DNA of 62,426 bases, the filler included. It is 4 parts of 4 records of this genome, joined end to end, with 100 filler letters (N's around TTAATTAATTAA, not from the genome) between each part and the next. Parts side by side here need not be neighbours in the genome. Positions count along the whole stretch, not along the records: positions 28,750 to 41,844 come from SRR20825019_822; 3 more parts are not named here. One strand, given 5' to 3'. A model generated the notes under the pieces. It was given only the letters and a program-made list of their open reading frames with translations, did not search any database and was not told the DNA's origin. Below are positions 28,650 to 48,730 of this stretch, one piece after another. Position numbers and translations under genes: made by a program. Numbering within the stretch: position 1 is the first letter of the stretch; every line of letters starts with the position of its first letter.

Positions 28650-28749
28650 NNNNNNNNNNNNNNNNNNNNNNNNNNNNNNNNNNNNNNNNNNNNTTAATTA
28701 ATTAANNNNNNNNNNNNNNNNNNNNNNNNNNNNNNNNNNNNNNNNNNNN
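28650..28749. other. Artificial contig linker (N44-TTAATTAATTAA-N44)
   Basis: N-run with a six-frame stop spacer; base composition and gene style change abruptly across it. Confidence 0.99.
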
Positions 28750-28963
28750 AGATTTACGTGAAAACCACGGAATTTTCTGCTCAATAGTTGTGTATCCAGT
28801 AATCCCAAAAGGATTGATACTTTTAAGGATGATACCAACTGCAACGCATACGATGCAGGATATTGAAGAAACTTTAGAAGCTTTTTCTGCAATACGTGAG
28901 CGATTAGAAAACGGAACATACAAACGTCTTTCAGCGGCTGTTTCAGAAGCTATGGGCGAATAA
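28750..28963 (+). CDS. 3' end of an alpha-oxoamine synthase family PLP enzyme (SPT/cysteate acyltransferase/BioF-like), truncated by contig edge
   Basis: Translation DLRENHGIFCSIVVYPVIPKGLILLRMIPTATHTMQDIEETLEAF matches the C-terminal P.VP.G..LR....A.HT..DI motif of this family. Confidence 0.8.
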
Positions 28964-28987
28964 ATATTAAGCAGAAGATCTTAATAT

Positions 28988-29017
28988 AAAAAACCACCTT
29001 TTTTAGGTGGTTTTTTT
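28988..29017. terminator. Bidirectional intrinsic terminator between convergent genes
   Basis: AAAAAACCACCT-TTTT(T)-AGGTGGTTTTTTT inverted repeat flanked by A and T tracts. Confidence 0.9.
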
Positions 29018-29019
29018 AT

Positions 29020-30138
29020 TTAAATATCTTTTCTAAAAGTACTACGTTCCTTATGCTGCACTGGATTGTAATCTTTCCAAAGTAACTGTACCGCTGTATT
29101 TTCCTTAAGTTCAGGATTGGTTTCAACGGTGTGAATTCCTTTTGTGTTAAAAAGATGTTGCATTTCTTCAAAAATAATAGCGGTTACACCCTTTCCTTGG
29201 TATTCCGGATCAATTCCTATTAAGTAAAATGCTGCGGTATCATTTTTTTTCTGGGCTTGAAGAATATAATTCCAACCCAGAGGAAATAGTTTTCCGTTTG
29301 CTTTCTTCAAAGCTTTTGAAAATGAAGGCATTACAATGGAAAACGCAATTAACTTACCAGTTTCATCTTTTATACAACAAATATAATCTGGGTGAATAAA
29401 GCTAAAATATTTTTCTTTGTAATAATCAATTTGGTATTGTTGAATAGGAACAAACGTTTGTAGCGTATTGTATGTCTTGTTTAACAAGCCAAACATTGCA
29501 TCTACATAAGGTAGAATTTCTTTTTTGTCCTTAAAGCGAATTACAGAAAGTTTATACCGATCTCGAACAATTTTTGAAAATTTCGCTACTTTTTCAAAAA
29601 TGGAATCTGGTATTTTAAGTCTATATTCAACCCAAGTAGCTTGTTTTTCGTAGCCTAATTGCTCTAAATGTTGTGCATAGTATGGGTAATGATACCATGT
29701 AATCATAGTATTCATTTCTTCAAAACCCATTGTTAGTACGCCCGCTTTTTCCATATTACTAAAGCCTACGGGGCCTTCAGCATATTCTAGGTTGTGTTCG
29801 CGCCCTTTTTCATAAGCTTTTTCTAGTAAGGCTTTGGTTACTTCAATATCATCAACCATGTCCAACCAGCCAAAGCGAACTTTCTTCTTTTCCTGTTCAT
29901 TTATTTCTAGGTGATTTATAATTACGGCAATACGCCCAACTATTTCATCATTTTTATATGCTAAATAATACCAAGCTTCAGCATTTTTAAATACTGGATT
30001 TTTTTTAGTATCCAGCGTTTCCATTTCATCTTTAGTCAATGAAGGAACCCAAAATTCACTGTTTTTGTATAATTTAAAGGGAAAAGTGATAAACTTCTTA
30101 AGATCACTTTTTGAGGAAATTTGTTTTATAGTAATCAT
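29020..30138 (-). CDS. YghO-like GNAT-fold acyltransferase (bacterial ceramide synthase-like family)
   Basis: KKFITFPFKLYK...WVPSL, VGRIAVIIN, VRFGWLD, GPVGFS and GNAT motif A IGIDPEYQGKGV..ELKEN. The ATG at 30138 avoids overlap with the upstream gene. Confidence 0.75.
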   Translation of the reverse strand: MITIKQISSKSDLKKFITFPFKLYKNSEFWVPSLTKDEMETLDTKKNPVFKNAEAWYYLAYKNDEIVGRIAVIINHLEINEQEKKKVRFGWLDMVDDIEVTKALLEKAYEKGREHNLEYAEGPVGFSNMEKAGVLTMGFEEMNTMITWYHYPYYAQHLEQLGYEKQATWVEYRLKIPDSIFEKVAKFSKIVRDRYKLSVIRFKDKKEILPYVDAMFGLLNKTYNTLQTFVPIQQYQIDYYKEKYFSFIHPDYICCIKDETGKLIAFSIVMPSFSKALKKANGKLFPLGWNYILQAQKKNDTAAFYLIGIDPEYQGKGVTAIIFEEMQHLFNTKGIHTVETNPELKENTAVQLLWKDYNPVQHKERSTFRKDI

Positions 30139-30148
30139 ATTCAAAATG

Positions 30149-31141
30149 CTATTGTTCGCCATTATCTTCTATATCCAGTTCGTCCAACCGGTCTTGTTTT
30201 TTGTCTTCATCTTTTACTTTTTCCTTTTTATCTTTTTGCTCTTTTGTAGCTTCATCTTCCAAATACTCGTCTTTATTGTGCATGTCAAAACGGTATGCAA
30301 CACCTACGCGTCCATAAAATTTTGAAGGTGTGTCTTTAAAATTAACGGTTAAAGAAAGATCTATTTGAAAATTTTCATTGAGTAATGCTGCTGCCCCCCC
30401 ACGTAGAAGTTGGTCTGAATAGAAATCACTTTTCAATCCTTGGTTTTCCACAAAAACTGAAAAATAGCGATTGGTAGCATGCGTTAATGTAACTATATAG
30501 CCATAAGTTGGAAAATCGGTTGTAACACGGTCAACAATTATATTTGTAACTAAAACCCATCCGCCTATAAAATTATTTTGTGTAGCAAGAATAAGTTTAG
30601 GGCTAACGCTACTGTCTGCCTCAGGTGTAAAAGGATTGTCTGCAAAATCGAAATTTGCCCCTGCGTATACTGAAATTGCAGGAATTAAATCTGCCCATTG
30701 TATTCTATTGTTTGCTTTCCAGCTATACAAATTAGGCCCTTTTAGTTCACGTTTTCTATAAGGATCATAAATTAAATATTTAGCTCCAACGGTATTACTT
30801 TTAAAGTTTGACAAACTGTATTCTCTTACTGTTGAAGAACGATTATCCACAACATTATTTGATTGAAACTCACCCATAAGGCTAATTTCTAATCGTTCTT
30901 TCCAAAAACCATATCTCACAGAGTAGTCAATCCCCAACCCATCTGATTCAGTTTTTAACAAGGTATGTTTTTCCTTTCCGTAGTTAATTCCAGACTCTAT
31001 TTGAAGTACATTCGTACCAACGGAAAATGCTCCTTGAGAGCCACCTGGACGGTTGGTGTTTATCATTTCAGTATACTGTGCCGAAGCATTTAAAAACGGT
31101 ATAAAAAAGAACAGAAATAAAAAAGGAAGTTTGCTATTCAT
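30149..31141 (-). CDS. Outer-membrane beta-barrel 'transporter' (MetA-pathway/PF13557-like)
   Basis: Signal peptide, INTNRPG..QGAFSVG..LQIESG start motif, alternating beta-strands ending GVAYRFD, followed by a charged tail. Confidence 0.7.
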   Translation of the reverse strand: MNSKLPFLFLFFFIPFLNASAQYTEMINTNRPGGSQGAFSVGTNVLQIESGINYGKEKHTLLKTESDGLGIDYSVRYGFWKERLEISLMGEFQSNNVVDNRSSTVREYSLSNFKSNTVGAKYLIYDPYRKRELKGPNLYSWKANNRIQWADLIPAISVYAGANFDFADNPFTPEADSSVSPKLILATQNNFIGGWVLVTNIIVDRVTTDFPTYGYIVTLTHATNRYFSVFVENQGLKSDFYSDQLLRGGAAALLNENFQIDLSLTVNFKDTPSKFYGRVGVAYRFDMHNKDEYLEDEATKEQKDKKEKVKDEDKKQDRLDELDIEDNGEQ

Positions 31142-31159
31142 GAAATGTTGGGTTTAGTT

Positions 31160-31167
31160 CAAAGATA
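31160..31167 (-). promoter_or_regulatory. Bacteroidetes-type -7 promoter element (TATCTTTG)
   Basis: Matches TAnnTTTG about 20 nt upstream of the 31141 start codon. Confidence 0.6.
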
Positions 31168-31247
31168 TAAGATTTTACCAATAATTTAATAGTCAATATT
31201 CGTCTTTTTCTGCATCAATCCTTATTTTTGGAAAGAATTTGACTATT

Positions 31248-31511
31248 ATGATGACATTCCTAAAAACGATATTAATCGTTCTTCTGGTATATTTCGGGCT
31301 TAAATTTTTAATTAAGCTCGCTACACCTTATTTAATGCGCTATATTTCGAAAAAAGCAGGACAACAGTTTGAGCAATTCTTCGGAAATAACCCAAACATG
31401 AATACTTCGCAAGAAAAAGAAGGAAGTATTACTATTGATAAAAATCCTGCTGCCAATTCACGTTCCAGTAAAAAAGTTGGAGAATACGTGGAGTTTGAAG
31501 AAGTAGATTAA
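31248..31511 (+). CDS. DUF4834-like small membrane protein
   Basis: N-terminal TM and C-terminal KKVGEYVEFEEVD, typical of this Bacteroidetes family. Confidence 0.75.
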   Translation: MMTFLKTILIVLLVYFGLKFLIKLATPYLMRYISKKAGQQFEQFFGNNPNMNTSQEKEGSITIDKNPAANSRSSKKVGEYVEFEEVD

Positions 31512-31650
31512 AAAAATGTTTGCATTTAAAGTAAAGTTTCATTTTGAATACTTTAGTTAAAACTTTTGAGAGTTTTCCTTTAGTCATGTTTGCCAAGTTT
31601 TCTGAATTATTTTTCATAATTTCCCCTCTTCATAATTTTAAGTCCAATTT

Positions 31651-34086
31651 ATGCATCCCAGCTACAAAAAATTTCTTCCTCATTTAGTTGTTTTTGTTTT
31701 ATTTATAATTGCTTCACTTGCATATTTTAATCCAGTTTTACAGGGAAAAAAAATATTCCAAAGTGATATTGTGCAATATACTGGAATGGCTAAACAGCAA
31801 AACGATTTTCGTGAAGCTACAGGCGAAGAAACATACTGGACTGACGCGGCTTTTGGAGGAATGCCAACCTATCAATTGGGCGCGAAATACCCAAATAATT
31901 ACATAAAACAACTCGATTTAGTCATTCGGTTTTTACCACGCCCAGCAGATTATCTATTCCTTTATTTTATTGGAATGTACATATTGTTTTTAGTATTAAA
32001 AGTAGATTATAAACTAGCTTTTCTCGGGGCATTAGCATTTGGTTTTTCAACCTATTTAATAATTATTTTAGGCGTAGGTCACAATGCAAAAGCGCACGCA
32101 ATAGCGTATATGCCTTTTGTATTAAGTGGTATATTTCTCACATTTCAAAGAAAATATTTGTGGGGATTCGTATTACTAACAGTCTCAATGGCGTTGGAAT
32201 TGGTTGCAAATCACTTCCAGATGACGTATTATTTGATGCTTTTAGTCCTTATTATTGGCATCGTTTATTTAATAGATGCTTTTAAGAAAAAACTCTTGTC
32301 ACATTACTTTAAAGCTGTTGGCATCATGGCTTTTGGTGTTTTAATTGCCGTTGGCTTAAATGCCACAAATATTTTAGCAACCAAGGAATATGCAGATTCC
32401 TCAACACGAGGAAAAACGGAGCTGACTATCAACGCAGATGGCACGCCAAAAGATTATAACACAGGATTAGATTTTGATTATATAACCGAATATAGCTACG
32501 GAAAACTGGAAAGTTTTAACCTGTTTATTCCGCGATTTATGGGAGGAAGTTCTTCAGAAGAATTTCCGAAAGATTCAAAAACCGTAGAAAGTTTAATGCG
32601 AATGGGGGCTTCTTCGCAAGAAGCAAATCAAATATTAAACCAAATTCCGATGTATTGGGGCGACCAAACTTTCGTGGGAGCTCCTGCCTATATTGGAGCA
32701 ATTGTTATATTTCTTTCAGTTTTGGCTTTGTTTTTAATTCGCGGACGATTGAAATGGTGGGTGGTTTCAACTTTTGTTTTAACACTGCTTTTATCATGGG
32801 GGAAAAATTTCAGCGGACTTTCAGAATTTTTTATTGATTACTTCCCGATGTACAATAAATTTCGAGCAGTTTCTTCCATACAAGTGATAATTGAACTTAT
32901 TCTTCCAATACTTGCAATTGTTGGTTTACATCAATTTTTTAATAAGTTTGATAAAGAAGAAGAAAAGAAAAAAGCCTTGCTTTGGGCTACTGGAATTGTT
33001 GGTGGGCTTACACTTATTTTTATCCTTTTTAAAGCTTCGTTATTCGATTTTGCGAGTCCGTATGATAGTTATTTTAGAGATGAAATGGGCTTGCCATTTT
33101 TGGAAGCGATACGCGAAGATAGAATGGCACTTTTTACATCAGATGCCATTCGCTCGTTGATTTTTGTTGCACTCACCGCCGCCGTTTTATGGTTTTATAT
33201 GATAGGAAAACTTAAAAATGGGTTTGCAATTGCTGCACTTACAGTTTTGGTTTTGATAGATTTAGTAGGGGTTAACAGACGTTATGTGAATGAAGACAAC
33301 TTTGTGCAAGCAAAAGTTATTGAAGAACCTTTTCAGAAAAACGGTGCAGATGCTCAGATTTTAGAAGATGAAGGTCATTATCGTGTTTATGATGCTACAT
33401 CAAACGCGTTTAATAGTGGTCGCGCAAGTTATTACCACAACGCTTTGGGGGGGTATCATGCTGCAAAACCAGGTAGAATGCAGGATTTGTTTGAGTTTTA
33501 CATAAGCAAAGGAAACATCGGAATCCTGAATATGATGAATGTGCGCTACATCATCACTCAATCTAAAAATGGGGGCGCAGTTTCACAACGAAATCCTTAT
33601 GCCAATGGCGATGCTTGGTTTGTTGAAAATGTACAGCCTGCTTCAAATGCAGATGAAGAAATACAACTTTTAGATAGTTTGAATACTAAAAAAACTGCTG
33701 TAATTAATACAGCTTTTCTTTCAAAAATTCCAAATAAAAACATAGAACGCGATAGCACCGCAACTATTGAGCTTTTTAGCTATCAGCCGAATCACTTGGT
33801 ATATGAGGCTGCTACAAAAACGGAACAGTTGGTTGTTTTTTCTGAAGTGTATTACCCACAAGGTTGGAACGCATATATAAATGGAAAACCTGCGGAATAT
33901 TTCCGTGCTAATTATGTGCTAAGAGCGATGATTATCCCTTCTGGAAACAACAAGATTGAGTTTAAATTTGAACCAAAAGTAATTGAAACAGGAAGTACCA
34001 TTTCTTTGGTGAGCAGTATTATTTTTCTTCTTATTTTATTGAGCGGATTGTATTTTGCTTTTTTGAAAAAAGAAGTTAAAGAATAA
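31651..34086 (+). CDS. YfhO-family polytopic membrane protein (GT-C-like)
   Basis: 811 aa with many TMs, WT...FGGMP.Y motif, and C-terminal FSEVYYPQGWNAYING..ANYVLRA..IEFKFEP. Confidence 0.85.
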   Translation: MHPSYKKFLPHLVVFVLFIIASLAYFNPVLQGKKIFQSDIVQYTGMAKQQNDFREATGEETYWTDAAFGGMPTYQLGAKYPNNYIKQLDLVIRFLPRPADYLFLYFIGMYILFLVLKVDYKLAFLGALAFGFSTYLIIILGVGHNAKAHAIAYMPFVLSGIFLTFQRKYLWGFVLLTVSMALELVANHFQMTYYLMLLVLIIGIVYLIDAFKKKLLSHYFKAVGIMAFGVLIAVGLNATNILATKEYADSSTRGKTELTINADGTPKDYNTGLDFDYITEYSYGKLESFNLFIPRFMGGSSSEEFPKDSKTVESLMRMGASSQEANQILNQIPMYWGDQTFVGAPAYIGAIVIFLSVLALFLIRGRLKWWVVSTFVLTLLLSWGKNFSGLSEFFIDYFPMYNKFRAVSSIQVIIELILPILAIVGLHQFFNKFDKEEEKKKALLWATGIVGGLTLIFILFKASLFDFASPYDSYFRDEMGLPFLEAIREDRMALFTSDAIRSLIFVALTAAVLWFYMIGKLKNGFAIAALTVLVLIDLVGVNRRYVNEDNFVQAKVIEEPFQKNGADAQILEDEGHYRVYDATSNAFNSGRASYYHNALGGYHAAKPGRMQDLFEFYISKGNIGILNMMNVRYIITQSKNGGAVSQRNPYANGDAWFVENVQPASNADEEIQLLDSLNTKKTAVINTAFLSKIPNKNIERDSTATIELFSYQPNHLVYEAATKTEQLVVFSEVYYPQGWNAYINGKPAEYFRANYVLRAMIIPSGNNKIEFKFEPKVIETGSTISLVSSIIFLLILLSGLYFAFLKKEVKE

Positions 34087-35372
34087 TGAAGAAAGCGCTA
34101 ATCATCACATATTATTGGCCTCCAGCGGGTGGCCCCGGCGTACAGCGATGGTTAAAATTTGTAAAATATTTTAGGGAATTTGATGTAGAACCAATTGTTT
34201 ACGTACCTGAAAACCCTAATTACCCTTTGGTTGATGAAAATTTTTCATCAGAAATCCCTTTCGATATTCAAATAATAAAGCAACCAATTTCAGAACCCTA
34301 TCGTTTCGCGAAGCTTTTTTCAAAAAAGAAAACAAAACAGATAAGCAGTGGGATTATTTCAAAAAAGGAAATTTCAGCAATTGAAAAATTAATGCTTTAT
34401 GTACGCGGCAACTTTTTTATTCCCGATGCACGAATTGGATGGGTAAAACCTTCGGTTAAATTTCTTTCAAAATATATTTTAAAAAACCCAATAGACGTAG
34501 TAATTACAACGGGTCCGCCACACAGTTTACATCTAATCGGGATGCAACTTCAAAAAGAATTAGGTTTAAAATGGATTGCAGATTTTCGAGATCCATGGAC
34601 AACGATTCACTATCACAAATCGCTCCGATTAAGTAAAACTTCGGAACGCAAACATAAAATGCTTGAAGCGTCTGTTTTAAAAACAGCAGATCTAATTACA
34701 GTAACCAGCCCAACCACCAAAAAGGAATTTGAAATGATATCAGAAACTCCAATAGCGGTGATTACAAATGGGTTTGATGCTAGCGAGCCATTCGATTTTG
34801 TGATGGATTCCACCTTTTCAATTTCACATATAGGTTCGTTGCTTAGTGAACGAAACCCTGAAGTTTTATGGAAAGTATTGGCGGAACTATGTAGCGAAAA
34901 TGCTTCGTTTAAAAACGATTTGCAGTTAAAATTTGCTGGTGCTGTTAGTGAAGAAATAAAGAAAAGTCTTGAAGATTTTCAGTTACTATCTAATTGTAGT
35001 TTTTTAGGATATGTGTCACATTCCGAAGCATTAAAACTTCAAAAGCAAAGTCAAGTTTTACTTTTGGTAGAAATAAATAGCGCGGAAACGCGCGCTATAA
35101 TTCCGGGAAAGCTTTTTGAATATTTGGCTGCTAAACGCCCAATTGTTGCTTTGGGACCAAAGGAAAGTGATATTGAAGGGACTATTACAGAAACAAATTC
35201 TGGGAAGTTTTTCAGTTATTGGGATGATGATGTGTTAAAGGCTGAAATTCTTCACTATTATGAAAATTTCAAAAAGGGAGAGTTGATTATTTCTTCTGAA
35301 GGGATTGAAAAGTATAGCCGTCGCGTATTAACGAAACAAATGGCTGCTTTAATACACACCCTAAAAAGGTAA
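34086..35372 (+). CDS. Glycosyltransferase family 4
   Basis: YYWPPAGGPGVQR, TTGPPHSLH, ADFRDPW and IPGKLFEYL; start overlaps the upstream stop (TAATG). Confidence 0.9.
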   Translation: MKKALIITYYWPPAGGPGVQRWLKFVKYFREFDVEPIVYVPENPNYPLVDENFSSEIPFDIQIIKQPISEPYRFAKLFSKKKTKQISSGIISKKEISAIEKLMLYVRGNFFIPDARIGWVKPSVKFLSKYILKNPIDVVITTGPPHSLHLIGMQLQKELGLKWIADFRDPWTTIHYHKSLRLSKTSERKHKMLEASVLKTADLITVTSPTTKKEFEMISETPIAVITNGFDASEPFDFVMDSTFSISHIGSLLSERNPEVLWKVLAELCSENASFKNDLQLKFAGAVSEEIKKSLEDFQLLSNCSFLGYVSHSEALKLQKQSQVLLLVEINSAETRAIIPGKLFEYLAAKRPIVALGPKESDIEGTITETNSGKFFSYWDDDVLKAEILHYYENFKKGELIISSEGIEKYSRRVLTKQMAALIHTLKR

Positions 35373-35408
35373 ACCTCCGATCTTCGCCTAGGCGAATCAC
35401 GAAGGTTT
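35371..35408. terminator. Hairpin between convergent genes (probable terminator)
   Basis: AAACCT..TTCGCCTAGGCGAA..AGGTTT imperfect inverted repeat. Confidence 0.6.
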
Positions 35409-35432
35409 AACCAACCAACCAAAAAACTATTT

Positions 35433-36581
35433 TTAACCTCTTGTTCTGCTACTCGTACTACTAGAGTTACCTCGGGAGGAACTTGTACTTACTTTACTAC
35501 TGCTTCGTGTAGGTGTACTAGACCTTTTTACGGTACTACTACGGCTCGTAACTTCTCTTTTTGGAGATTGAGTTGTATTTCGTGTTACAGAGCTGCTTCT
35601 TTGATTTGAAGGAGTGCTTCGTACTTGCTGTGTCTGAGAACTTCTTCCTGTTGAAACAGTTCGGGTGTTAGTATTGCTTCTAGTATTTGTACGTACTACA
35701 TTTTCACTGCGTGTGTTCTTCACGCTAGTTGTAGTGTTATTTCGGGTGTTAGCCGAGTTACGAACATTCGTTGCAGCGGTATTACTATTTCTAGTTACCG
35801 TGTTACGTGTATTGTTAGTTCGAACAGAAGTATTGTTTCGACCTGTTGAAGTAATCATGGTGTTTGTACGGTTTGGGTTGTAATTTTTGTTTACTGAAAC
35901 CCTTCCATTTTTATCGTAAACACGACTTCCTGGTCTGTAGAAATCTCTTCTACCGTTATTATACGCTGTACGATTTCTATTCTTATAGTAAACCACATGT
36001 TGGTGGTAGCTATAACGAATAGGGTTGTAATATCTTCTATAAGGAGTATCGTAAACTACACAGTGGCTATAAATAGGTCTTGCATAATACACATGCCAAG
36101 GGCGATATACATAATATGGGTTGAAAAAATTTATTGCTCCAGTTACGTGTGAAAAATACCCGTAGTTGTTATAAACTACATGTAAACCACCCACACGAAC
36201 AATGCGTCTATCGTTATATTGAATATCAACATTTCCTGCTTGCGCTATACGCCCGTATTCATCATAATAGATAGGAACACTTTCTATTTGTATTACTGCG
36301 CCATAATCATCGTATTGCACATAGGCTTCATAATCGTACCCAGAATTGAAACTTATGTTTACATTAGGAGAGCTGATTGCAACACGGGAACCTGATTGCG
36401 GTCCTACATATACAAAGTCAAATTGACCATCAGGAAAGATGGAGAATTCTACGTCGCCTTCAACAAAGATGTATGCGTTACCGTCATAACCTCTTCGGTT
36501 ATTGTTTTCGTCTTCAATGGAAGTTGCATTTGCTGAAAATCCCATTAAGAGGATGCTGAAAATAAATGCTATGTTTTTCAT
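35433..36581 (-). CDS. Secreted hypothetical protein with Tyr-rich core and Arg/Ser/Thr/Asn-rich disordered tail
   Basis: Signal peptide MKNIAFIFSILLMGFSANA, globular Tyr/Gly-rich domain, and ~150-aa basic low-complexity C-terminus. Confidence 0.85.
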   Translation of the reverse strand: MKNIAFIFSILLMGFSANATSIEDENNNRRGYDGNAYIFVEGDVEFSIFPDGQFDFVYVGPQSGSRVAISSPNVNISFNSGYDYEAYVQYDDYGAVIQIESVPIYYDEYGRIAQAGNVDIQYNDRRIVRVGGLHVVYNNYGYFSHVTGAINFFNPYYVYRPWHVYYARPIYSHCVVYDTPYRRYYNPIRYSYHQHVVYYKNRNRTAYNNGRRDFYRPGSRVYDKNGRVSVNKNYNPNRTNTMITSTGRNNTSVRTNNTRNTVTRNSNTAATNVRNSANTRNNTTTSVKNTRSENVVRTNTRSNTNTRTVSTGRSSQTQQVRSTPSNQRSSSVTRNTTQSPKREVTSRSSTVKRSSTPTRSSSKVSTSSSRGNSSSTSSRTRG

Positions 36582-36650
36582 AAGTTTCAAATTTTAAAGG
36601 TTTGTACTTGCTTTACTATTTTTTAGTAAGTTGTGTACGCTTATAAATAA

Positions 36651-36665
36651 CCAACGACCGTGCCA
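36651..36665 (-). promoter_or_regulatory. Sigma54-type -24/-12 promoter upstream of the 36581 gene
   Basis: TGGCAC-GGTCG-TTGG on the minus strand, with canonical -24/-12 spacing, ~70 nt upstream of the ATG. Confidence 0.6.
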
Positions 36666-36829
36666 TAATTTTAAAGTGCTGATTAACAGTGTGAAAATTC
36701 AAAAAAGCAGCTATTAAAACCCATGCTTCAAAACTTAAATAGCTAAAAATTTAATTTCTATTTCTTTTTTATTACATATGGAAAAGGGTTTTCCTTTGAA
36801 AATTATATTCGAAGAAAAAGCATACCAAC

Positions 36830-36905
36830 AAAAAATCCGCTGAAGTGTTTAATCACTTACAACGGATTTTTAAAACCAACCAAAAAAACTAAAATCTGTT
36901 TTCTG
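36830..36905 (-). ncRNA. Candidate sigma54-dependent small RNA (~75 nt)
   Basis: Lies between a TTGGCAC-AGTAA-TTGA promoter (36917-36932) and a hairpin with U-tract (36830-36871). Contains AGTTTTTTTGGTTGGTT and no ORF. Confidence 0.45.
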
Positions 36906-36916
36906 GTAGTGTATTT

Positions 36917-36932
36917 TCAATTACTGTGCCAA
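36917..36932 (-). promoter_or_regulatory. Sigma54-type -24/-12 promoter immediately downstream of the uvrA stop
   Basis: TTGGCACAGTAATTGA on the minus strand. Confidence 0.6.
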
Positions 36933-36943
36933 AAAGCGTAAAA

Positions 36944-39721
36944 TTAAATTTTCTCTCTCAAATATTCGGCAGTAAAAGATTCTTTGTTCTTGGCAATTTC
37001 TTCTGGAGTGCCTTCAGCAATTACTTGTCCACCGTTTTCACCACCTTCAGGGCCCAAATCAATAATATGATCTGCACACTTTATTAAATCTAAATTGTGC
37101 TCTACCACAATAACGGTATGGCCTCTATCTAACAAGGCATAAAAGGAAGCGAGCAATTTTTTAATATCGTGAAAGTGAAGCCCAGTTGTTGGTTCATCAA
37201 AAATAAAAACGGTTTTTTCTTTTGAAGTCCCTTTCACTAAAAACGAAGCAAGCTTTATACGCTGTGCCTCACCGCCTGAAAGCGTAGATGAGCTTTGCCC
37301 CAGTTGTACATAGCCAAGGCCAACATCTTGTAATGGTTGCAATTTTGCAGCAATCTTATTTTGCTTGTGTTCCCCAAAGAAAGCCACGGCATCATCAACG
37401 GTCATTGTTAGGATGTCGTCTATATTTTTATTTTGAAAAGTAACTTCAAGTACTTCTTTTTTGAAGCGTTTGCCATTGCAAGTATCGCACACCAAATGCA
37501 CATCGGCCATAAATTGCATTTCTATGGTTACTTCACCTTCTCCTTTACAGGTTTCACAGCGACCGCCATCTACGTTGAAAGAAAAATGTTTCGCTTTGTA
37601 GGCACGAATGTCTGAAAGTTTCTGTGAAGCATACAAATTACGAATATCATCGTATGCCTTTATATAAGTAACAGGATTGCTTCGGCTGGAACGACCAATA
37701 GGATTTTGGTCGATAAACTCAATACTTTTGATGGTGCCAAAATCTCCTTTTATTTCTGAAAACTGTCCAGGCTTTTCACCGTAACCGCCAATTTCCCGCA
37801 TAAGTGCAGGATAAAGAATTTTTTTAACTAAAGTACTCTTTCCACTTCCAGAAACACCTGTTACTGCTGTAAAAACATTAAGCGGAAAGGTTACATCTAT
37901 ATTTTTAAGATTATTCTGCCGCGCCCCAGATATGGTAATTTTGTTTTTTGAAGTACGTCGCTTTTTTGGGACTTCAATTTCCATTTCCCCATTTAAGTAT
38001 TTCGCGGTAAGGGATTCGGAACGCAATATTTCGGCATAATTTCCTTGTGCAACCACTTCGCCTCCATAAGTTCCCGCTTCGGGGCCAATGTCTATAATTT
38101 CATCGGCTGCTTTCATAATATCTTCATCGTGTTCAACCACAATTACTGTATTACCTATATCTCGCAATGCTTTTAAAACCACGATAAGCCTTTCTGTATC
38201 CTTTGGGTGAAGACCAATACTTGGTTCGTCTAAAATATACATAGAGCCCACAAGACTGCTTCCTAGTGAGGTTGCAAGGTTAATACGTTGCGATTCTCCT
38301 CCAGAAAGAGTATTTGATTTTCTGTTGAGTGTTAAATAACCCAAACCAACATCTCTTAAAAATCTGATTCTGTTGTTAATTTCAAGCAAAAGGCGCTTGG
38401 CAACATTCGCTTCATATTCTGGAAGTTCAAGGTTTTTAAAGAAAAAAGCCGCTTTATCTAAAGGTAATTCTACCAATTCTTGAATTGCGGTGCCGTTAAT
38501 TTTTACATAAGCAGCTTCAGGGCGAAGTCGTTTTCCTTTGCAAGTGGCACATTTTGTTTTTCCGCGATAGCGTGAAAGCATTACGCGATTTTGAATTTTA
38601 TAGCTTTTGGATTCTAAAAACGAAAAGAATGAATTCAATCCCTCAAAATAACTATTTCCATCCCAAACCAATTGTTTTTGCGCATCGGTAAGCTGAAACC
38701 AAGGTTTGTGAATTGGAAAATCAAATTTATAAGCATTGTTTACAAGCTGATCTCTATACCAACTCATGCTATCTCCACGCCACGGAAATATAGCGTTTTC
38801 ATAAATGGAAAGCGCTGTATTTGGAATTACTAAGTCTTCATCAATACCAATAACATCGCCATAACCTTCACAAACAGGACACGCTCCATACGGATTATTG
38901 AAGCTAAAAAGATGCACATTTGGCTCCATAAACAACATGCCATCTGCTTCAAAGCGGTTGTTGAATTCAGTAATTGTTTTTGAAGAAAGCGTTTCAATAT
39001 ACAATTCTCCTTTTCCTTCGAAAAAGGCTATTTCAATTGCATCGGCAAGGCGGTTGTAAAAATCTTCTTCATCTTTTGTGATGATGCGGTCTACAACCAA
39101 ATCAATTTTCTCTGGAAAAGATTTCTTATTAATTTCATCAATTCGTACTACTTCGCCATCAATTTTTACTCTGGAATATCCTTGTTGCGCCAAGGCATTT
39201 ATTTTGTTTTCCATAGTCCGTCCTTCTTCCAAATGAATAGGAGCGAGAAGAAGGAGTTTTTCGCCGTCAGGAAAGTTTTTTATGAAATTTATAACATCAG
39301 TTGTAGTATCTTTTTTTACTTCTTTACCAGAAACCGGTGAAATGGTTTTTCCGATTCGGGCGTAAAGTAATTTCAAATAATCGTATAACTCCGTAGAGGT
39401 ACCTACTGTAGATCTGGGGTTTGTAGAATTTACTTTTTGCTCTATTGCAATGGCTGGCGCAATACCTTTTATGGAGTCTACTTTTGGTTTATCTAGCCTT
39501 CCTAAAAACTGTCGTGCATAGCTGGAAAGGCTTTCTACGTAGCGTCTTTGGCCTTCTGCATATAGTGTATCGAAAGCAAGGCTAGATTTTCCACTCCCAG
39601 AAAGACCGGTAATAACGACCAATTTATTGCGAGGAATGGCAACCGTAATATTTTTAAGATTATGAAGTTTAGCTCCTTGAATGAGGATGCTTTTTTTGGT
39701 ATCTACTGTTTCCGTATTCAA
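36944..39721 (-). CDS. uvrA: Excinuclease ABC subunit A
   Basis: Two Walker A motifs ([18 protein letters not shown]), LSGGE signatures, Zn-finger CxxC pairs and FSFN motifs; TTG start. Confidence 0.97.
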
Positions 39722-39748
39722 TTTTTTTCTCCTTTCTAATAGCTTTTA

Positions 39749-39756
39749 CAAAGATA
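39749..39756 (-). promoter_or_regulatory. Bacteroidetes-type -7 promoter element for uvrA
   Basis: TATCTTTG about 28 nt upstream of the start codon. Confidence 0.6.
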
Positions 39757-39975
39757 CTATATCAGTTTCATCAAAGCACATTTGGAGTTATTATTATTAA
39801 TTTATAGAAAAATTTAACCTTTTTTTTGCATTTGTGATTTCTTTGTTGTTATATTTACGGCTCTTAACGTCATTTAAAAAAAATATTGCCTATAGCTGAT
39901 CTTTACTTTTAACAAATAAACATTTTAATCAAGCAACCTAGTCTCTAGTTGTTTATTTTTTAAAAAAGTATTGAT

Positions 39976-40560
39976 ATGAAGCAAAGCAATAGCTCTGACG
40001 CGTTTCTAGTGAACGCCTATATTAACGGTGACGAATCTGCACTTGGTGAACTTATTATACGCCATAAGCAACGAATCTACAGTTTTATTTACTCCAAAGT
40101 ATTTGATAGAGATGTCTCTGAAGACATTTTTCAAGACACTTTCATTAAAGTTATTCGAACTTTAAAAAGAGGTGCGTACAATGAGGAAGGAAAATTTCTA
40201 CCTTGGGTTATGCGTATCGCCCATAATTTGGTGATAGATCACTTCAGAAAAAACAACCGCATGCCCAAATTTGAAAACAATACTGATTTTAATATATTTT
40301 CAGTGTTGAGTGATAATGCCCTAAATATTGAAAAACAAATGATAAAAGGGCAGGTTGAAAACGATGTAAGAAGATTGATTCAAGAACTGCCAGATGACCA
40401 AAAAGAAGTCTTAATGATGCGAATTTATAAAGACATGAGTTTTAAGGAAATTAGTGAGCAAACAGGTGTTAGTATCAATACTGCACTGGGAAGAATGCGT
40501 TACGCACTTATTAATTTGCGTAAAGTAATTGATAAACATAATATTATATTAACAAATTAA
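39976..40560 (+). CDS. ECF sigma-70 factor
   Basis: Region 2 EDIFQDTFIKV..FLPWVMRIAHNLVIDHFRK and region 4 LPDDQKEV..MSFKEIS..GVSINT. Confidence 0.95.
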   Translation: MKQSNSSDAFLVNAYINGDESALGELIIRHKQRIYSFIYSKVFDRDVSEDIFQDTFIKVIRTLKRGAYNEEGKFLPWVMRIAHNLVIDHFRKNNRMPKFENNTDFNIFSVLSDNALNIEKQMIKGQVENDVRRLIQELPDDQKEVLMMRIYKDMSFKEISEQTGVSINTALGRMRYALINLRKVIDKHNIILTN

Positions 40561-40617
40561 TACAATAATATAATTTTTGCGACGTTATTTGAAAATAAAC
40601 CTCGAAATAACAACTCT

Positions 40618-40770
40618 ATGCAAAAATTTTACTCTGAAACATCACGTGTGGACGACGTGAATAAAAAACTTGTTCCAAAAGAGGAAACTATAAAATTTCT
40701 TCTGGATTACTCAATGGCTTTAAGTGTTATAGATTATAATAAATTGAAGTTTGAAGCGCTTCTAAACTAA
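40618..40770 (+). CDS. 50-aa small protein downstream of the ECF sigma (absent from ORF track)
   Basis: ATG 40618 to TAA 40770 encodes MQKFYSETSRVDDVNKKLVPKEETIKFLLDYSMALSVIDYNKLKFEALLN; it lies between the sigma gene and the terminator. Confidence 0.7.
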   Translation: MQKFYSETSRVDDVNKKLVPKEETIKFLLDYSMALSVIDYNKLKFEALLN

Positions 40771-40777
40771 ACTTTGG

Positions 40778-40811
40778 AAAGACCCTGAAATTAACGTTTC
40801 AGGGTTTTTTG
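40778..40811. terminator. Intrinsic terminator after the ECF sigma and small ORF
   Basis: ACCCTGAAA-TTAACG-TTTCAGGGT stem followed by a T tract. Confidence 0.9.
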
Positions 40812-40835
40812 TTTTTAAACCGTTCGGTCTAAAAT

Positions 40836-41492
40836 TCATTTTTTCTTCATTAAATAGTCATTAATAACCGTTTTTCTACCAATAGTTTTGGTAATTATAT
40901 CCTTTTCCAAATCCCAGCCTCGCGCTGGAGAATATTGCCTTCCATACCAAATAATTTGAAGGTGAAGCCTATTCCATAAATCTCTTGGAAACAAACGTTT
41001 TGCATCTTTTTCTGTTTGTACTACGTTTTTACCATTTGTAAATCCCCAGCGGTACATTAGTCTATGAATGTGCGTATCTACAGGGAAAGCTGGAACATTA
41101 AATGCCTGACTCATAACCACACTTGCCGTTTTATGGCCAACGGCAGGAAATGATTCTAAAGCTTCAAAATCTGCTGGTAAGATTCCATTGTGTTTTTCTA
41201 TAAGCATTTTTGAAAGTCCATGAATTCCTTTAGATTTCATCGGTGATAGCCCAACGGGTTTTATGATTTCCCTAATTTCTTCTACAGAAAGTTTTACCAT
41301 ATCGTAGGGATTGTCTGCAACTTCAAAAAGTAAAGGCGTTATTTTGTTTACCCTAACATCTGTGCTTTGAGCAGAAAGTAGCACAGCAATAAGCAATGTG
41401 TACGGGTCTTTATGATCTAAAGGAATTGGAATTTGAGGATAAATTTCATTTAATGTATCAATTACAAAAACTACCTTTTCTTGCTTGGTCAT
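40836..41492 (-). CDS. nth: Endonuclease III (HhH-GPD glycosylase) lacking the C-terminal 4Fe-4S Cys motif
   Basis: LLIAVLLSAQSTDVRVN, HhH PAVGHKTA (catalytic Lys) and FPVDTHIHR (catalytic Asp). The translated protein contains no Cys. Confidence 0.9.
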   Translation of the reverse strand: MTKQEKVVFVIDTLNEIYPQIPIPLDHKDPYTLLIAVLLSAQSTDVRVNKITPLLFEVADNPYDMVKLSVEEIREIIKPVGLSPMKSKGIHGLSKMLIEKHNGILPADFEALESFPAVGHKTASVVMSQAFNVPAFPVDTHIHRLMYRWGFTNGKNVVQTEKDAKRLFPRDLWNRLHLQIIWYGRQYSPARGWDLEKDIITKTIGRKTVINDYLMKKK

Positions 41493-41523
41493 TTTTAAGT
41501 ATTTTTATGCAAAAATAAGGATT

Positions 41524-41844
41524 ATGAAAACATTACAAGCAGGGGATAAGGCTCCATCTTTTACAGTAAACGATCAGGATGGAAATAGTATTTCTTCAGA
41601 AGATTATAAAGGGAAGAAATGGGTTGTTTTTTTCTATCCAAAAGCGAGTACTCCAGGTTGTACAACCGAAGCGTGTAACCTTCGCGATAATTATGAAGAA
41701 TTACAACAACAAGGTTATGAGTTGCTGGGTGTAAGTGCTGATAGCGAAAAAAGACAAAAAAACTTTAAAGAAAAATACCGTTTTCCGTTTCCATTATTGG
41801 CAGATGAAAACAAAGAAGTTATAAACGCTTTTGGTGTTTGGGGA
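41524..41844 (+). CDS. bcp: Thioredoxin-dependent thiol peroxidase (BCP/PrxQ), truncated by contig edge
   Basis: FFYPKASTPGCTTEACNLRD, GVSAD and FPLLAD. Confidence 0.95.
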
Positions 41845-41944
41845 NNNNNNNNNNNNNNNNNNNNNNNNNNNNNNNNNNNNNNNNNNNNTTAATTAATTAA
41901 NNNNNNNNNNNNNNNNNNNNNNNNNNNNNNNNNNNNNNNNNNNN
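41845..41944. other. Artificial contig linker
   Basis: N-run with TTAATTAATTAA. Confidence 0.99.
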
Positions 41945-41976
41945 GGCGATACATTGTCAGAGGCAAAATTCATCAT
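41945..41976 (-). CDS. 5' stub of a second threonine aldolase-family gene (MMNFASDNVS), truncated
   Basis: The minus strand reads ATGATGAATTTTGCCTCTGACAATGTATCG, the same MNFxSDN start as the upstream gene. Confidence 0.65.
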
Positions 41977-42097
41977 CTATCTCGCAAATAATTTGGTGGC
42001 GCACAGCACTTGAACAAAATGCTATCGCGTTTTGGTATGATAAGGGACGTTATCACACGCAATCCTTGATCAAGGCAAAAGGCATTCGCCGGTGATT

Positions 42098-43120
42098 TCA
42101 GGAATTGATGGATTTCGGGATATCACGGATCAAATCAATCGGGCTGTTCCACGCGCAGACAAACCGATAGGCATCCGGCCCGATAGACGCCCAAGGACGA
42201 AACACAATACCGGCGTCGCGCAGGCTTTGGTCAAGTTCGTCCTTCATATGAATGAAAAGCTCATTGCCTTGTGGCGTAAAGGCGGCCTTTGCACCGATGC
42301 TTTCAAGAGCATGCTGTAACGCAATGGCGGCCTCATTGGCGTGCCGCGCATTACGCAACCACAGATCATCTTTAAGATAGGCCAGAAGTTGGGCGGCAAG
42401 ATAACGGTGCTTGGAGAACAGGTGCCCGCCGCGCTTACGGCTTTTTTCGGTATGAAGGCGCAACTCGCGATCAAACAGAACAATGGCATCGACCGCCAGC
42501 GCACCGTTTTTGGTCGCCCCGAAACTTAAAACATCTACACCTGCTTTCCACGTGATGTCGGCAGGATGGCAATCCAGCGTTGCCACCGCATTGGCGAAAC
42601 GTGCCCCGTCCATGAACAAGCGCATGTCATGCTTTTGGCAGGTTTTGCCAATGGCCTGCACTTCATCAACGTTATAGACGGTACCAAATTCGGTGGTTTG
42701 GGTGATCGCAACGCATTCCGGATCGACCGAATGCATGCCATTGGGGCTATGTGCGCGCAGAAAGGCATCCAGAGTATCAGCCTCAATCTTCGCAGATGGC
42801 CCATCAATACCAAGAAGCTTTGCACCCCCGCCATAAAACGCCACGCCGGTTGATTCCGTCATATTGATATGGGCGCGATGGTGGCAAACAACCCCGCCAA
42901 AGGGGGAAACCAACCCGGACAGCCCGATCAGATTGGCTGCCGTTCCGGTGGCGACCGGAACAACGCAAACATCGGTACCAAACAATTCGGAAAAGGCAGC
43001 ATCAAGCTGTTGGCTTTTGTCATCCGCGCCATAGGGAAGGGCCGCGTGATCACTTTCGGCCGCAATGGCGTTCAGGATTTCCGGACAGATTGGCGTAACA
43101 TTGTCGGATGAAAAATTCAT
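42098..43120 (-). CDS. ltaE: Low-specificity L-threonine aldolase family (alternative start 43168)
   Basis: MNFSSDN, YGAD, TGTAAN, HINMTE, MDGARFANA and SFGATKNG (PLP lysine). Confidence 0.9.
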   Translation of the reverse strand: MNFSSDNVTPICPEILNAIAAESDHAALPYGADDKSQQLDAAFSELFGTDVCVVPVATGTAANLIGLSGLVSPFGGVVCHHRAHINMTESTGVAFYGGGAKLLGIDGPSAKIEADTLDAFLRAHSPNGMHSVDPECVAITQTTEFGTVYNVDEVQAIGKTCQKHDMRLFMDGARFANAVATLDCHPADITWKAGVDVLSFGATKNGALAVDAIVLFDRELRLHTEKSRKRGGHLFSKHRYLAAQLLAYLKDDLWLRNARHANEAAIALQHALESIGAKAAFTPQGNELFIHMKDELDQSLRDAGIVFRPWASIGPDAYRFVCAWNSPIDLIRDIPKSINS

Positions 43121-43238
43121 CGGGGCCTCATTATCGCTGTGGGGCATTTGGGGCGGCTGTATTGGCATCGTGTTTGAAGTGGTGTCGTGACGGATGCCGT
43201 TGCAGAGTGTTGCGATTTAACTCTTTTGGCAAGAGACG

Positions 43239-45521
43239 CTATTTGGATGTCGCAACAAAAACACCGTCCCAATCGGCGGGCGGTGGTGTTTGTTTAAAGA
43301 TATCGATACGGCCAAGATACATATCATAAAGGCCCGCCAACGCCCCGACACCGCGCGATGCATCACGGCATTGCGCGATCAGATCTATGGCCGCGTCCCA
43401 GTTCCGTTGGCGATAGGCCACAAGCATTTCTTTGTGTAGCGTTTGGCAATTCTGGAATGCGTCGGAACCATAAAGTATGCCGTCGCCTAGCAGGGCATAG
43501 ATATGCACAGCTTCGCTTTTGCCTTTTACCGCAATCAGATCAAGCTCAAGAATGGCAAATTCACGCTCAACCCGCTTGGCGACTTCTTCGCCCAAAACGA
43601 TATCGACACCGTAATTCTTTGACTGGCCTTCAAGGCGGGCAGCAAGATTGACTGCATCGCCAAGGACGGAATAATCAAACCGTTGATCCGATCCCATATT
43701 GCCGACAAGACAATCACCGCAATTAATTCCAACCCCGACATTCAGCGGCAGGAACGGCGTATCATCCTGTTTGGCTTCCGCCAACCGTTCTGTATTGAGC
43801 ACATCAAGTGCATGTCGCATGGCAAGTGCACTGTCGCAGGCATGATGGGCGTGGTTTTCAACATCAAGTGGCGCATTCCAGAACGCCATGATGCAGTCAC
43901 CCATATATTTATCAATCGTGCCTTCACGATTAAGGATGCAGTCGCTGAGCGGTGTCAAAAGGCGGTTGATCAGACGCGTCAAGCCTTGCGGATTGGATTT
44001 GAACCCTTCGGAGATCGAGGTAAATCCACGCACGTCACAAAACATCAACGTCATGTCACGGGTTTCACCGCCAAGTTTAAGTCGTTCGGGGTGGCGGGAC
44101 AGTTCATTGACCAAGGCCGGGGACAGGTAGTTGCCAAATGCAGTACGGACCTGACGGCGTTCGCCTTCGGTGCGCATAAAGCCAATGGAACTGGTGGCAA
44201 GGTAAACTGCAAGCAAGCTGATCAACGGATAAACCGGATCAATCAGAAGGAGCCTGGTTTCATAGGCCCACCATGAAAACCCGAATGCCCCGAACGCAAG
44301 TGTGCCACCAATCAATGCCGGCCAGACTGCACCCAAGCGGGGAACGCTCATGACAAAGAACAACCCAAGCAACAGCAAAACAAGCATCTCGGTTTCCGCC
44401 GCCCAATAGGGCCGGGTCAGGAAATGCTCCAGCAACATTTGTTCAAGCATCTCGGCATGGATTTCAACGCCGGGAAGAACAGGATCAAGCGGCGTGGATC
44501 TAAGATCCAGCAATCCTGCCGCACTGGTGCCAATCAGAACAAAGGTATCGCGTAAGCTACCCTGTGGAAGGCTGTCATTCATCACGTCGGCAGCCGAGAA
44601 ATAGCGTGCCTTTTGATTGCCGCTGAAATGCACCCACATGTTTCCGGCGTGATCGGTTGGAATGGTAATCTTCCCGACCCGGATGGCCTCGATACCTTCG
44701 GACTGGGTCCAGCGTGTGCTGCCACTGGCACCGGACATCCGGACATTCATTGTATGGGGTGCATCCTGAAGAACGCGCAGCATTTCTAACGATAATGTCG
44801 GATATACCGGCATGCCAATGACCGGCAGGGGATGATCCAGTGCCGCAAGCAACGGCACACGTCGCACAATCCCGTCCTGTTCCGGTGAAACATTGACCAG
44901 CGCATTGCCACTTGCGGCATTTTCAATAACCTCAAGATTTTTGGCCGCACCGGGCAAAACCGCAATGAAATCGGAAAGCTTACGACCTGCTTCGCCAGAG
45001 ACACTAAAATTACCCACCTGGCGGGGCGGGCTATCAACGCTTTTGTTGGTCAACTGAACCGCGGTAACGACCTGTCCTGTGCCGCGAATGAACTGGGCAA
45101 ACAGGTTGTCATGGTCGGGCAGAGTTTCGGCAAGTTTGGTGATTTCATCAATTTCGCGGCCCTTGGGCCAGTCTTGGACAACCCGGGCAGGTGATGTGCG
45201 ATCAGGTTCGGCAAAAACCACGTCAAACCCGACAACCTGTGCCCCCGCCGAGCGTAACCGATAAACAAGGCCGGCCAGTCGGGTGCGCGGCCAGGGCCAT
45301 TGCCCCATTTCTTCAAGACTGCGTTCATCAATATCAATAATCCGCACCCCGACATCTTCAAAGGGGCGCGGCGAAACACGCTGATAGGTATCAAAGACAT
45401 TCAGACGTAACTGATCAATAAACGGCACATCCTGCCAACGCATGAAAATGCAGCTCAGCAATATACCCAATGGGATCAGGTAATGCAGAACGCGCAGCAG
45501 GTTGGTTTTGGTCAGACGCAT
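43239..45521 (-). CDS. CHASE2-domain class III adenylate cyclase
   Basis: N-terminal TM, CHASE2 (IIDIDERSL..GQWPWPR, DGIVRR, PGVEIHA), three TMs, then cyclase motifs FCDVRGFT, IDKYMGD and DYSVLGDAVNLAARLE with the Lys/Asp pair typical of ATP specificity. Confidence 0.95.
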   Translation of the reverse strand: MRLTKTNLLRVLHYLIPLGILLSCIFMRWQDVPFIDQLRLNVFDTYQRVSPRPFEDVGVRIIDIDERSLEEMGQWPWPRTRLAGLVYRLRSAGAQVVGFDVVFAEPDRTSPARVVQDWPKGREIDEITKLAETLPDHDNLFAQFIRGTGQVVTAVQLTNKSVDSPPRQVGNFSVSGEAGRKLSDFIAVLPGAAKNLEVIENAASGNALVNVSPEQDGIVRRVPLLAALDHPLPVIGMPVYPTLSLEMLRVLQDAPHTMNVRMSGASGSTRWTQSEGIEAIRVGKITIPTDHAGNMWVHFSGNQKARYFSAADVMNDSLPQGSLRDTFVLIGTSAAGLLDLRSTPLDPVLPGVEIHAEMLEQMLLEHFLTRPYWAAETEMLVLLLLGLFFVMSVPRLGAVWPALIGGTLAFGAFGFSWWAYETRLLLIDPVYPLISLLAVYLATSSIGFMRTEGERRQVRTAFGNYLSPALVNELSRHPERLKLGGETRDMTLMFCDVRGFTSISEGFKSNPQGLTRLINRLLTPLSDCILNREGTIDKYMGDCIMAFWNAPLDVENHAHHACDSALAMRHALDVLNTERLAEAKQDDTPFLPLNVGVGINCGDCLVGNMGSDQRFDYSVLGDAVNLAARLEGQSKNYGVDIVLGEEVAKRVEREFAILELDLIAVKGKSEAVHIYALLGDGILYGSDAFQNCQTLHKEMLVAYRQRNWDAAIDLIAQCRDASRGVGALAGLYDMYLGRIDIFKQTPPPADWDGVFVATSK

Positions 45522-45554
45522 GGGTGGGGTTTTCGTTTGCCAGCCAATTTCTGA

Positions 45555-47006: not shown

Positions 47007-47008
47007 CA

Positions 47009-48713: not shown

Positions 48714-48730
48714 CCATTAGGTTGTTCTTC

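Follow-up and report, generated by a model that had tools for sequence, protein, structure and literature searches.

What are the closest described relatives of a GU-rich RNA motif that recurs directly before terminator hairpins in Flavobacteriaceae? Here we consider a locus on the minus strand of a 62,426-base stretch of DNA (the window; all coordinates refer to the whole stretch), in which two boxes of the sigma-54 type, TGGCAC-N5-TTG, each head a unit that ends in a U-run plus GGUUGGUU followed by a hairpin. The first unit contains no open reading frame (ORF), and the second encodes an exported protein. The motif has a counterpart in Rfp18 of Flavobacterium psychrophilum, a small RNA (sRNA) of 97 nucleotides (nt) with a sigma-A-type start (promoter class SM2/SigA), in which two 5′ stem-loops are followed by a U-run plus GGUUGGUU and then by the terminator (Guerin et al. 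2021, PMC9723704). In a comparative target prediction, nt 34-63 of Rfp18 form the pairing region and meet mRNAs at about −24 to +7, with a best reported false-discovery rate of 5e-4; in stationary phase, a strain deleted for rfp18 had less of two metalloprotease mRNAs, and F. columnare expresses a homologue (PMC9723704). The same report describes Rfp40, a 74-nt RNA that also has a sigma-A-type start and lies 95 nt after a sigma-54-driven exported-protein gene (PMC9723704).

How does the locus compare with these RNAs? Set by eye against the published sequences, the window copies resemble both Rfp18 and Rfp40 in having a single-stranded U-run plus GGUUGGUU (GGUUUGGUU in Rfp40) right before the terminator, and the predicted pairing region of Rfp18 covers the shared motif. 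Rfp18 differs in its two 5′ stem-loops and in a UUCAUAAUU element, and the window copies have neither. An earlier note on this DNA had stated that no described family was known for the module; that statement calls for correction, because Rfp18 carries the same U-run plus GGUUGGUU within its predicted pairing region. The F. psychrophilum report treats the motif neither as a family nor as an element of mRNA 3′ ends, and draws no link to sigma-54 (PMC9723704). No other paper on Rfp18 or on the motif string was found in the literature searched.

Several other systems share single features with the locus. MicL of enterobacteria is transcribed from an alternative-sigma promoter that lies within a coding sequence, as far as the terminator of that gene, DapZ has a G/U-rich seed identical to that of the free-standing sRNA GcvB, and CpxQ is released by cleavage from the 3′ end of an envelope-stress mRNA; all three are single genes and Hfq-dependent. 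Here, in contrast, one putative seed lies on several regulon mRNAs throughout the family, and one copy appears to have outlived its host gene. Likewise, Qrr1-5, GlmY/GlmZ and CrcZ are short sigma-54-dependent RNAs with −24/−12 promoters, the Qrr RNAs being siblings with a common seed. Neither these nor Rfp36 of F. psychrophilum show sequence likeness to the window copies, and we know of none among them whose seed is common to mRNA 3′ ends of the same regulon. Rfp36 is a short RNA with a −24/−12 promoter but without GGUUGGUU (PMC9723704).

Finally, the FopS/GibS family of Bacteroides thetaiotaomicron resembles the module in its many copies per genome, its one single-stranded seed and its terminator hairpin, as well as in comprising both intergenic members and members derived from 3′ untranslated regions (3′UTRs); the family acts at translation start regions (PMC11697453). 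The sequences are unrelated, and the module gave no relevant Rfam match up to an E-value of 10, a comparison that includes FopS if FopS is present in Rfam. FopS differs further in being bound by RbpB, in being tied to polysaccharide use and in belonging to another bacterial family (PMC11697453). Sigma-54 sRNAs, 3′-derived sibling sRNAs and Rfp18 are the known relatives of the system described here.

A conserved two-unit locus with covarying terminator hairpins

The two minus-strand boxes reported by the earlier note are present, the distal one, TGGCACagtaaTTG(a), at 36918-36931 and the proximal one, TGGCACggtcgTTG(g), at 36652-36665, and the near-identical motif was found at both sites named, each time before a hairpin. 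Downstream of the distal box, 27 bases lead to the first motif copy, AGUUUUUUUGGUUGGUU (36874-36890, reading AGTTTTTTTGGTTGGTT), which precedes a terminator hairpin (AAAAAUCCG...CGGAUUUUU) and T run at 36831-36871. With a start placed by the −24/−12 spacing and an end at the T run, the predicted transcript spans 36830-36905, about 76 nt, in keeping with the roughly 75 nt without an ORF that had been described; the minus strand from 36590 to 36944 contains no ORF of at least 40 amino acids (aa). About 165 poorly conserved bases separate this hairpin from the proximal box, which lies 71 nt upstream of the ATG at 36581 and from whose position the exported-protein mRNA would have a 5′UTR of 36582-36639. 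The gene itself, P0001 (35433-36581, 382 aa, TAA stop at 35433-35435), encodes a signal peptide, a Tyr-rich N-terminal domain and a basic tail rich in Ser, Thr, Arg and Asn. The second motif copy, AGUUUUUUGGUUGGUUGGUU (35409-35428, reading AGTTTTTTGGTTGGTTGGTT), begins 5 nt past the P0001 stop and adjoins the second terminator hairpin at 35368-35412.

Within the window the motif is rare. Allowing at most one mismatch, TTTTTGGTTGGTT has exactly two matches in 62,426 bases, both at the modules, against 0.20 expected, and two matches were reached in one of 100 shuffles. The box pattern TGGCACNNNNNTTG has three matches against 0.70 expected, a number that four of 100 shuffles reach. This statistical support is modest, and conservation in related genomes is decisive. 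Each motif copy precedes a stable hairpin and T run, that is, a G+C-rich hairpin and then a U run as in intrinsic terminators. The predicted folds have a minimum free energy of −22.5 kcal/mol (z −5.1) for 36830-36905 and of −23.1 kcal/mol (z −3.3) for 35363-35432, and GGUUGGUU is unpaired in both. A simple terminator scan listed neither hairpin; both contain interior mismatches.

Is the two-unit arrangement conserved? A profile of the exported protein was compared with genome contigs, and the best 80 of 551 confirmed relatives were taken as loci; having been selected by likeness to one protein, these loci are mutually related and are not independent events. They come from Aequorivita, from Patiriisocius, Ulvibacter, Altibacter, Jejudonia, Marixanthomonas, Planktosalinus and Luteirhabdus, in which identity to P0001 falls to about 45-50%, and from other genera. 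Despite this divergence of the protein, the non-coding anatomy of boxes, motif copies and hairpins is maintained across genera. A proximal box lies at most 250 nt before the gene in 77 of the 80 loci, and a motif lies at most 110 nt after its stop, usually at 0-10 nt, again in 77. Where the flank was long enough, an upstream module (a second motif 120-900 nt upstream) was found in 65 of 76 loci, and 61 of these 65 have a distal box at most 200 nt before the upstream motif. The ORF-less module is duplicated, in tandem or close by, in some genomes: one locus has two modules behind one box (L229), and two others have an extra upstream module (L017, L044).

Local conservation, scored from 0 to 10 in 34 Aequorivita sequences, distinguishes the same elements. 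Scores of 8-9 fall on the boxes, motif, hairpin stems and entire gene leader, and scores of 0-4 on the spacer between the uvrA stop and the distal box and on about 130 nt past the first terminator. The leader at 36582-36639, which contains a small hairpin, is conserved nearly base for base within Aequorivita, and a partly conserved block at 36666-36690 adjoins the proximal box on its upstream side. The arrangement observed in the window is therefore genuine, and its conservation is strong.

The hairpin is an RNA structure, as shown by an alignment of 74 module copies in which nine of the ten pairs of the stem have compensatory changes. In this alignment 97.0% of the stem cells are paired, against 80.6% in shuffles; the observed covariation score was reached by none of 500 shuffles, and sliding the pairing partner by one column lowers pairing to 58-64%. 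The motif columns are invariant in the same 74 copies. The stem sequences differ between upstream and downstream copies, which have the motif and its placement in common and do not form a repeated element. The Rfam search that had been suggested as a check matched no relevant family: the window gave four matches at chance level, all to snoRNA or histone models (E 5.4-8.9), and none of six further module loci reached an Rfam gathering score.

The surroundings of the locus are as follows. It lies within a 13-kb piece (28750-41844) of 32-38% G+C with genes of Aequorivita type, and a locus from Aequorivita sp. Q41 matches it with 98% protein identity. The upstream gene on the same strand is uvrA (36944-39721, minus strand); its stop, at 36944, is followed after 13 nt by the distal box, its transcripts would enter that box and the first module, and the hairpin at 36831-36871 probably ends them as well. 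On the other side, the 3′ arm of the second hairpin shares bases with the stop codon of a glycosyltransferase gene in convergent orientation (34086-35372, plus strand). Neither P0001, nor its paralogue-type protein, nor the lipoprotein family introduced below has a Pfam or NCBIfam match, and a protein Atlas search on function returned unnamed Bacteroidota clusters only. Four sequencing runs of guessed kind yielded six short contig pieces, all within the coding region at 35664-36568 and none over the modules or boxes. The remainder of the window is of other origin. Spacers at 28650-28749, 41845-41944 and 50365-50464, each consisting of two 44-N runs 12 bases apart, separate four stretches that differ in G+C, so that the window is a concatenation of unrelated contigs; the pieces beside 28750-41844 are richer in G+C and unrelated to it. 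Eukaryote-type Pfam matches (RWP-RK, eukaryotic carbonic anhydrase, ankyrin, CRAL_TRIO_N) characterize the stretch 1-28649, and the stretch 41945-50364 resembles another bacterium.

The module and its sigma-54-type boxes in the Flavobacteriaceae

A covariance model built from the module was searched against samples of the family and the phylum at a threshold of E 1e-4 or better. Matches, one to eight per genome, were found in 101 of 121 Flavobacteriaceae genomes (100 of 120 besides the starting genome), and in 8 of 141 genomes of the phylum sample (7 of 140 besides the starting genome). In five related genomes, beyond the copies at the locus itself, the module follows hsp20 in three and clpB in one; it also occurs after a gene for a 335-aa lipoprotein, in the 3′ region of a luxE-like gene, and as an orphan intergenic copy, ending in TTTTGGTTGGTTATTTAGTTGA plus hairpin, between the divergent genes gpsA and nadD. 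This orphan element (L127, L128, L130; also L091, L098, L099), in which no ORF, box or Rfam match was found, is a candidate for a free sRNA belonging to this class of modules. In some relatives' loci, for example L123-L125 (also L122, L131, L134), the module has TTCATAATT right before the GG repeats of its motif, as in Rfp18; a typical AAUUAUGAA start region is complementary to this stretch. The copy after the luxE-like gene may be the true counterpart of Rfp18 in Aequorivita.

How often does the module accompany a sigma-54-type box? We examined 69 loci (29 from the family search and 40 mid-ranking matches; 174,881 bases), which hold 76 copies of motif plus hairpin. A box lies at most 160 nt before the ATG of the preceding gene for 49 copies and at most 200 nt before the motif itself for 13; eight copies have no box, and six were not assessable, owing to the locus edge or to a clpB gene running off its piece. 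Thus 62 of 70 assessable module units have a sigma-54-type box, as would be expected from the earlier note, which had proposed a family-wide scan for the motif beside such promoters. Conversely, these 174,881 bases contain 72 boxes, counting both strands, and 61 of them are part of module-bearing units. The genes concerned are mostly those of the exported-protein family and of a family of lipoproteins of 303-335 aa characterized by TSCYTEV and LWYVDI in the N-terminal part and by a basic tail (L212, L215, L222, L223, L227, L270, others); in most lipoprotein genes seen, the box lies about 50 nt before the ATG and the module follows the stop. The combination of clpB and module recurs in three genomes (L299, L302, L303) besides the first (L134), the identity of the gene having been checked for L299. 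Similarly, hsp20 genes (L126, L136, L140) end in motif plus hairpin and are preceded by a conserved TGGAAT-N5-TTGAC, which, read by eye, is a possible variant of the box.

In every copy the motif stands 0-12 nt before the terminator hairpin, whether what precedes is an mRNA, a structured sRNA or a minimal RNA, and some copies consist of little beyond box, motif and hairpin; in one of them only 23 nt separate box and motif. The 12-mer TTTTGGTTGGTT occurs five to nine times per genome in the five genomes, about as often as its reversed control, and TTGGTTGGTTAGT, with one mismatch, exceeds its control in four of the five genomes (by a clear margin in one) and falls short of it in the other. The module is thus rare and does not amount to a repeat family. 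Some copies look like CAT plus motif and could be taken for leaders of genes on the opposite strand; this possibility was rejected, the longest such ORF being 31 aa.

Both boxes in the window have the −24 element TGGCAC, with its GG, and the exact spacing to a conserved TTG at −12; the consensus C that should follow is A in the distal box and G in the proximal box and varies among loci. The five related genomes, one of which has the locus at 98% identity, each encode one rpoN (by its Sigma54_DBD match) and three to five enhancer-binding proteins with strong Sigma54_activat matches. In the genome of the closest relative (2.9 Mb), TGGCAC-N5-TTG occurs at 22 sites, against 12 for the reversed control. 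Its gene-facing sites outside long reading frames include the two of this locus and one before dnaK, TGGCACaatcaTTG, 72 nt before the ATG (L252, relative G001 contig 2, 158410-158423, minus strand). This dnaK box agrees with the dnaK sigma-54 promoter mapped in F. psychrophilum, where mapped 5′ ends place −24/−12 elements before groESL, lon, dnaK, grpE-dnaJ, htpG, skp and clpB, as well as before exported proteins and lipoproteins of unknown function and the candidate RNA Rfp36 (PMC9723704). One mapped start of the sigma-54 type (SM4) in that organism has TTTGA at −12 (PMC9723704). A comparative study likewise predicted that chaperone genes have sigma-54 promoters, and found the enrichment to be highest in Flavobacteriia (PMC12316311).

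The ORF-less unit and the tandem paralogue

What is the origin of the ORF-less unit? Of the 80 loci, 14 have an intact gene ahead of the upstream module; it encodes a secreted protein of 189-221 aa, a distant paralogue of P0001 (179 residues aligned, E 3e-10; QWHDDWY of the paralogue corresponds to PWHVY of P0001). A word-based search with this paralogue gave 13 relatives, none named from Flavobacterium. All 14 paralogue genes have a box of their own 50-84 nt before the ATG, and 13 of the 14 have a second box inside the coding sequence, 78-131 nt before the motif. This internal box is formed by the last codons of the paralogue, where TGG-CAC-GAT-GAT-TGG encodes W-H-D-D-W (W-H-x-x-W). ORF-less loci preserve remnants of the F-W-H type in the frame of the box and then stop codons; one locus has about 35 in-frame codons of the paralogue C-terminus and nothing before them. 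In one intact paralogue with a W-H-T-N-W internal box, the spacer, TGGCACACTAATTG, is the common spacer of the Aequorivita boxes. From these comparisons the ORF-less unit reads as the vestige of a paralogue that stood in tandem with the exported-protein gene, and the box of the small unit as a descendant of the paralogue-internal box rather than of the paralogue's own promoter.

In the ORF-less loci of several genera, TGGCA[CT]-N5-TTG is kept exactly while the sequence after it diverges. Because the box was retained after the frame was lost, it would work at the level of DNA, which argues that the distal box acts as a promoter. The same pattern suggests that the segment from box to terminator was already a 3′-end-derived RNA gene before the coding part was lost.

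The function of the shared motif

We propose that the locus is a conserved two-unit part of a Flavobacteriaceae sigma-54 stress/envelope regulon. In unit 1, a promoter of the −24/−12 type would drive the ORF-less RNA of about 76 nt, and in unit 2 a second such promoter would drive the exported-protein mRNA, so that both RNAs end in a single-stranded U-run plus GGUUGGUU right before an intrinsic terminator. The GU-rich stretch would then pair with C/A-rich regions around the start codons of other mRNAs, as predicted for Rfp18. Action of the free RNA would be direct, whereas an mRNA 3′ end would act once cleaved off or while still part of the whole transcript; together they would be sibling regulators, dosed according to how much the regulon is transcribed. 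In this scheme the starts of transcription, the dependence on sigma-54, the processing and the pairing are inferred from sequence. We favor the base-pairing seed because the motif is single-stranded and is the only part common to otherwise differing RNAs, because some copies have little beyond box, motif and hairpin, and because the motif coincides with the predicted pairing region of Rfp18. Taken as a whole, a base-pairing seed within a two-unit sigma-54 locus has in our judgment an even chance of being correct. The earlier note's suggestion of sibling sRNAs is retained in this proposal; its alternative, a sponge acting on another sRNA, is unlikely, since what the mRNA ends have in common with the free RNA is the sequence itself and not its complement.

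A number of observations weigh against this proposal. On the promoter side, the −12 elements in the window, TTGA and TTGG, are without the consensus C; no conserved activator site was found at about −60 to −200 of the proximal box in the 34 Aequorivita sequences; the luxE-like and gpsA/nadD copies have no box; and both Rfp18 and Rfp40 start at sigma-A promoters, so that the module is not specific to sigma-54. Most of the copies counted belong to two orthologous gene families, and the number of independent events is therefore small. On the target side, AACCAACCAA within 25 nt of an ATG is not commoner than its control in three of the five genomes, the genes behind such sites differ between the five genomes with no gene family in common, and the closest relative has no convincing 10-mer target site. 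Nor does the seed region pair in any special way with the leader of its own mRNA (−11.3 kcal/mol, against a shuffle mean of −11.1). M43 metalloproteases, a predicted target class of Rfp18, are encoded in only one of the five genomes. The sigma-54 regulon put forward in the earlier note is, for its part, partly supported: conservation, rpoN and activators in the relatives and the box in 62 of 70 module units speak for it, and the observation on which it was built is confirmed; judged by comparison of genomes, the proposal at the level of the regulon appears well supported.

Might the motif instead be a binding site for a protein? The motif and terminator together could dock an RNA chaperone or regulator, in the manner of the U-rich-plus-terminator Hfq-binding module of enterobacterial sRNAs, and bursts of sigma-54 transcripts would then titrate that protein. 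Sponges such as CsrB and CrcZ carry many binding sites; the RNAs considered here have one motif each, with two to three GGUU units. The invariance of the motif among RNAs that differ elsewhere is expected of such a platform, as is the lack of a conserved complementary target in the five genomes; its fixed place 0-12 nt before the hairpin, whatever precedes, fits a platform and a seed equally well. Bacteroidota are reported to be without Hfq, ProQ and CsrA and to have RRM proteins that bind single-stranded regions of sRNAs (PMC11697453, PMC13370968), which would leave room for a protein of this kind, but RbpB is reported to prefer AU-rich sequence (PMC11697453), and the Rfp18 target prediction, at the false-discovery rate given above, puts the pairing region on the motif itself (PMC9723704). 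We regard the platform as rather unlikely, and as the most serious rival of the seed.

Alternatively, the motif could act in cis alone, by setting termination, 3′ processing or decay, the ORF-less copy being a decaying remnant that serves mainly as the uvrA terminator. Such a role would suit the position of the motif 0-10 nt after the stop in most mRNA copies, the T-rich non-template strand just before the terminator, the occurrence at the ends of hsp20, clpB and exported-protein genes, which probably share induction and shut-off, and the descent of the ORF-less copy from a lost gene. However, the retention of the box in 61 of 65 ORF-less units despite a broken frame is hard to explain without promoter function, some copies are almost solely box, motif and hairpin (23 nt between box and motif in one), and Rfp18 and Rfp40 are free, abundant small RNAs with the module (PMC9723704). 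We therefore consider a purely cis-acting element improbable. Finally, the distal box might be no promoter at all but slowly decaying former coding sequence, with only the proximal box and the terminators functional, a view to which its homology to the W-H-x-x-W codons (an origin that needs no promoter), its TTGA at −12 and the lack of a visible activator site lend some color, but which is highly implausible because the box is locally conserved, scoring 8-9 in Aequorivita beside a spacer at 0-4, is exact in the ORF-less loci of several genera in which divergence and stop codons follow it, and is matched in its −12 part by the mapped TTTGA start of F. psychrophilum.

If the base-pairing seed is accepted, a wider picture can be imagined, which we offer tentatively and consider doubtful: a distributed non-coding arm of the regulon, in which one GU-rich seed is carried by sigma-54 mRNAs (those of exported proteins, the lipoprotein family, hsp20 and clpB) and by free RNAs, the output of the regulon sets the dose of the regulator, and new free copies would arise when an embedded promoter outlives its gene.

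RNA-based regulation is poorly known in Bacteroidota, in which the usual RNA chaperones are reported to be missing. The compact motif described here is found across the sampled genomes of the family and links a studied sRNA, Rfp18, with dozens of unstudied transcripts and with a putative sigma-54 chaperone/envelope regulon, and a single 14-nt sequence provides an experimental handle. The ORF-less unit also points to a path for the birth of sRNA genes, in which a promoter-like box arises in a coding sequence and is kept after the coding part has been lost. If the seed reading is true, many mRNAs of one regulon would carry the seed of a free sRNA.

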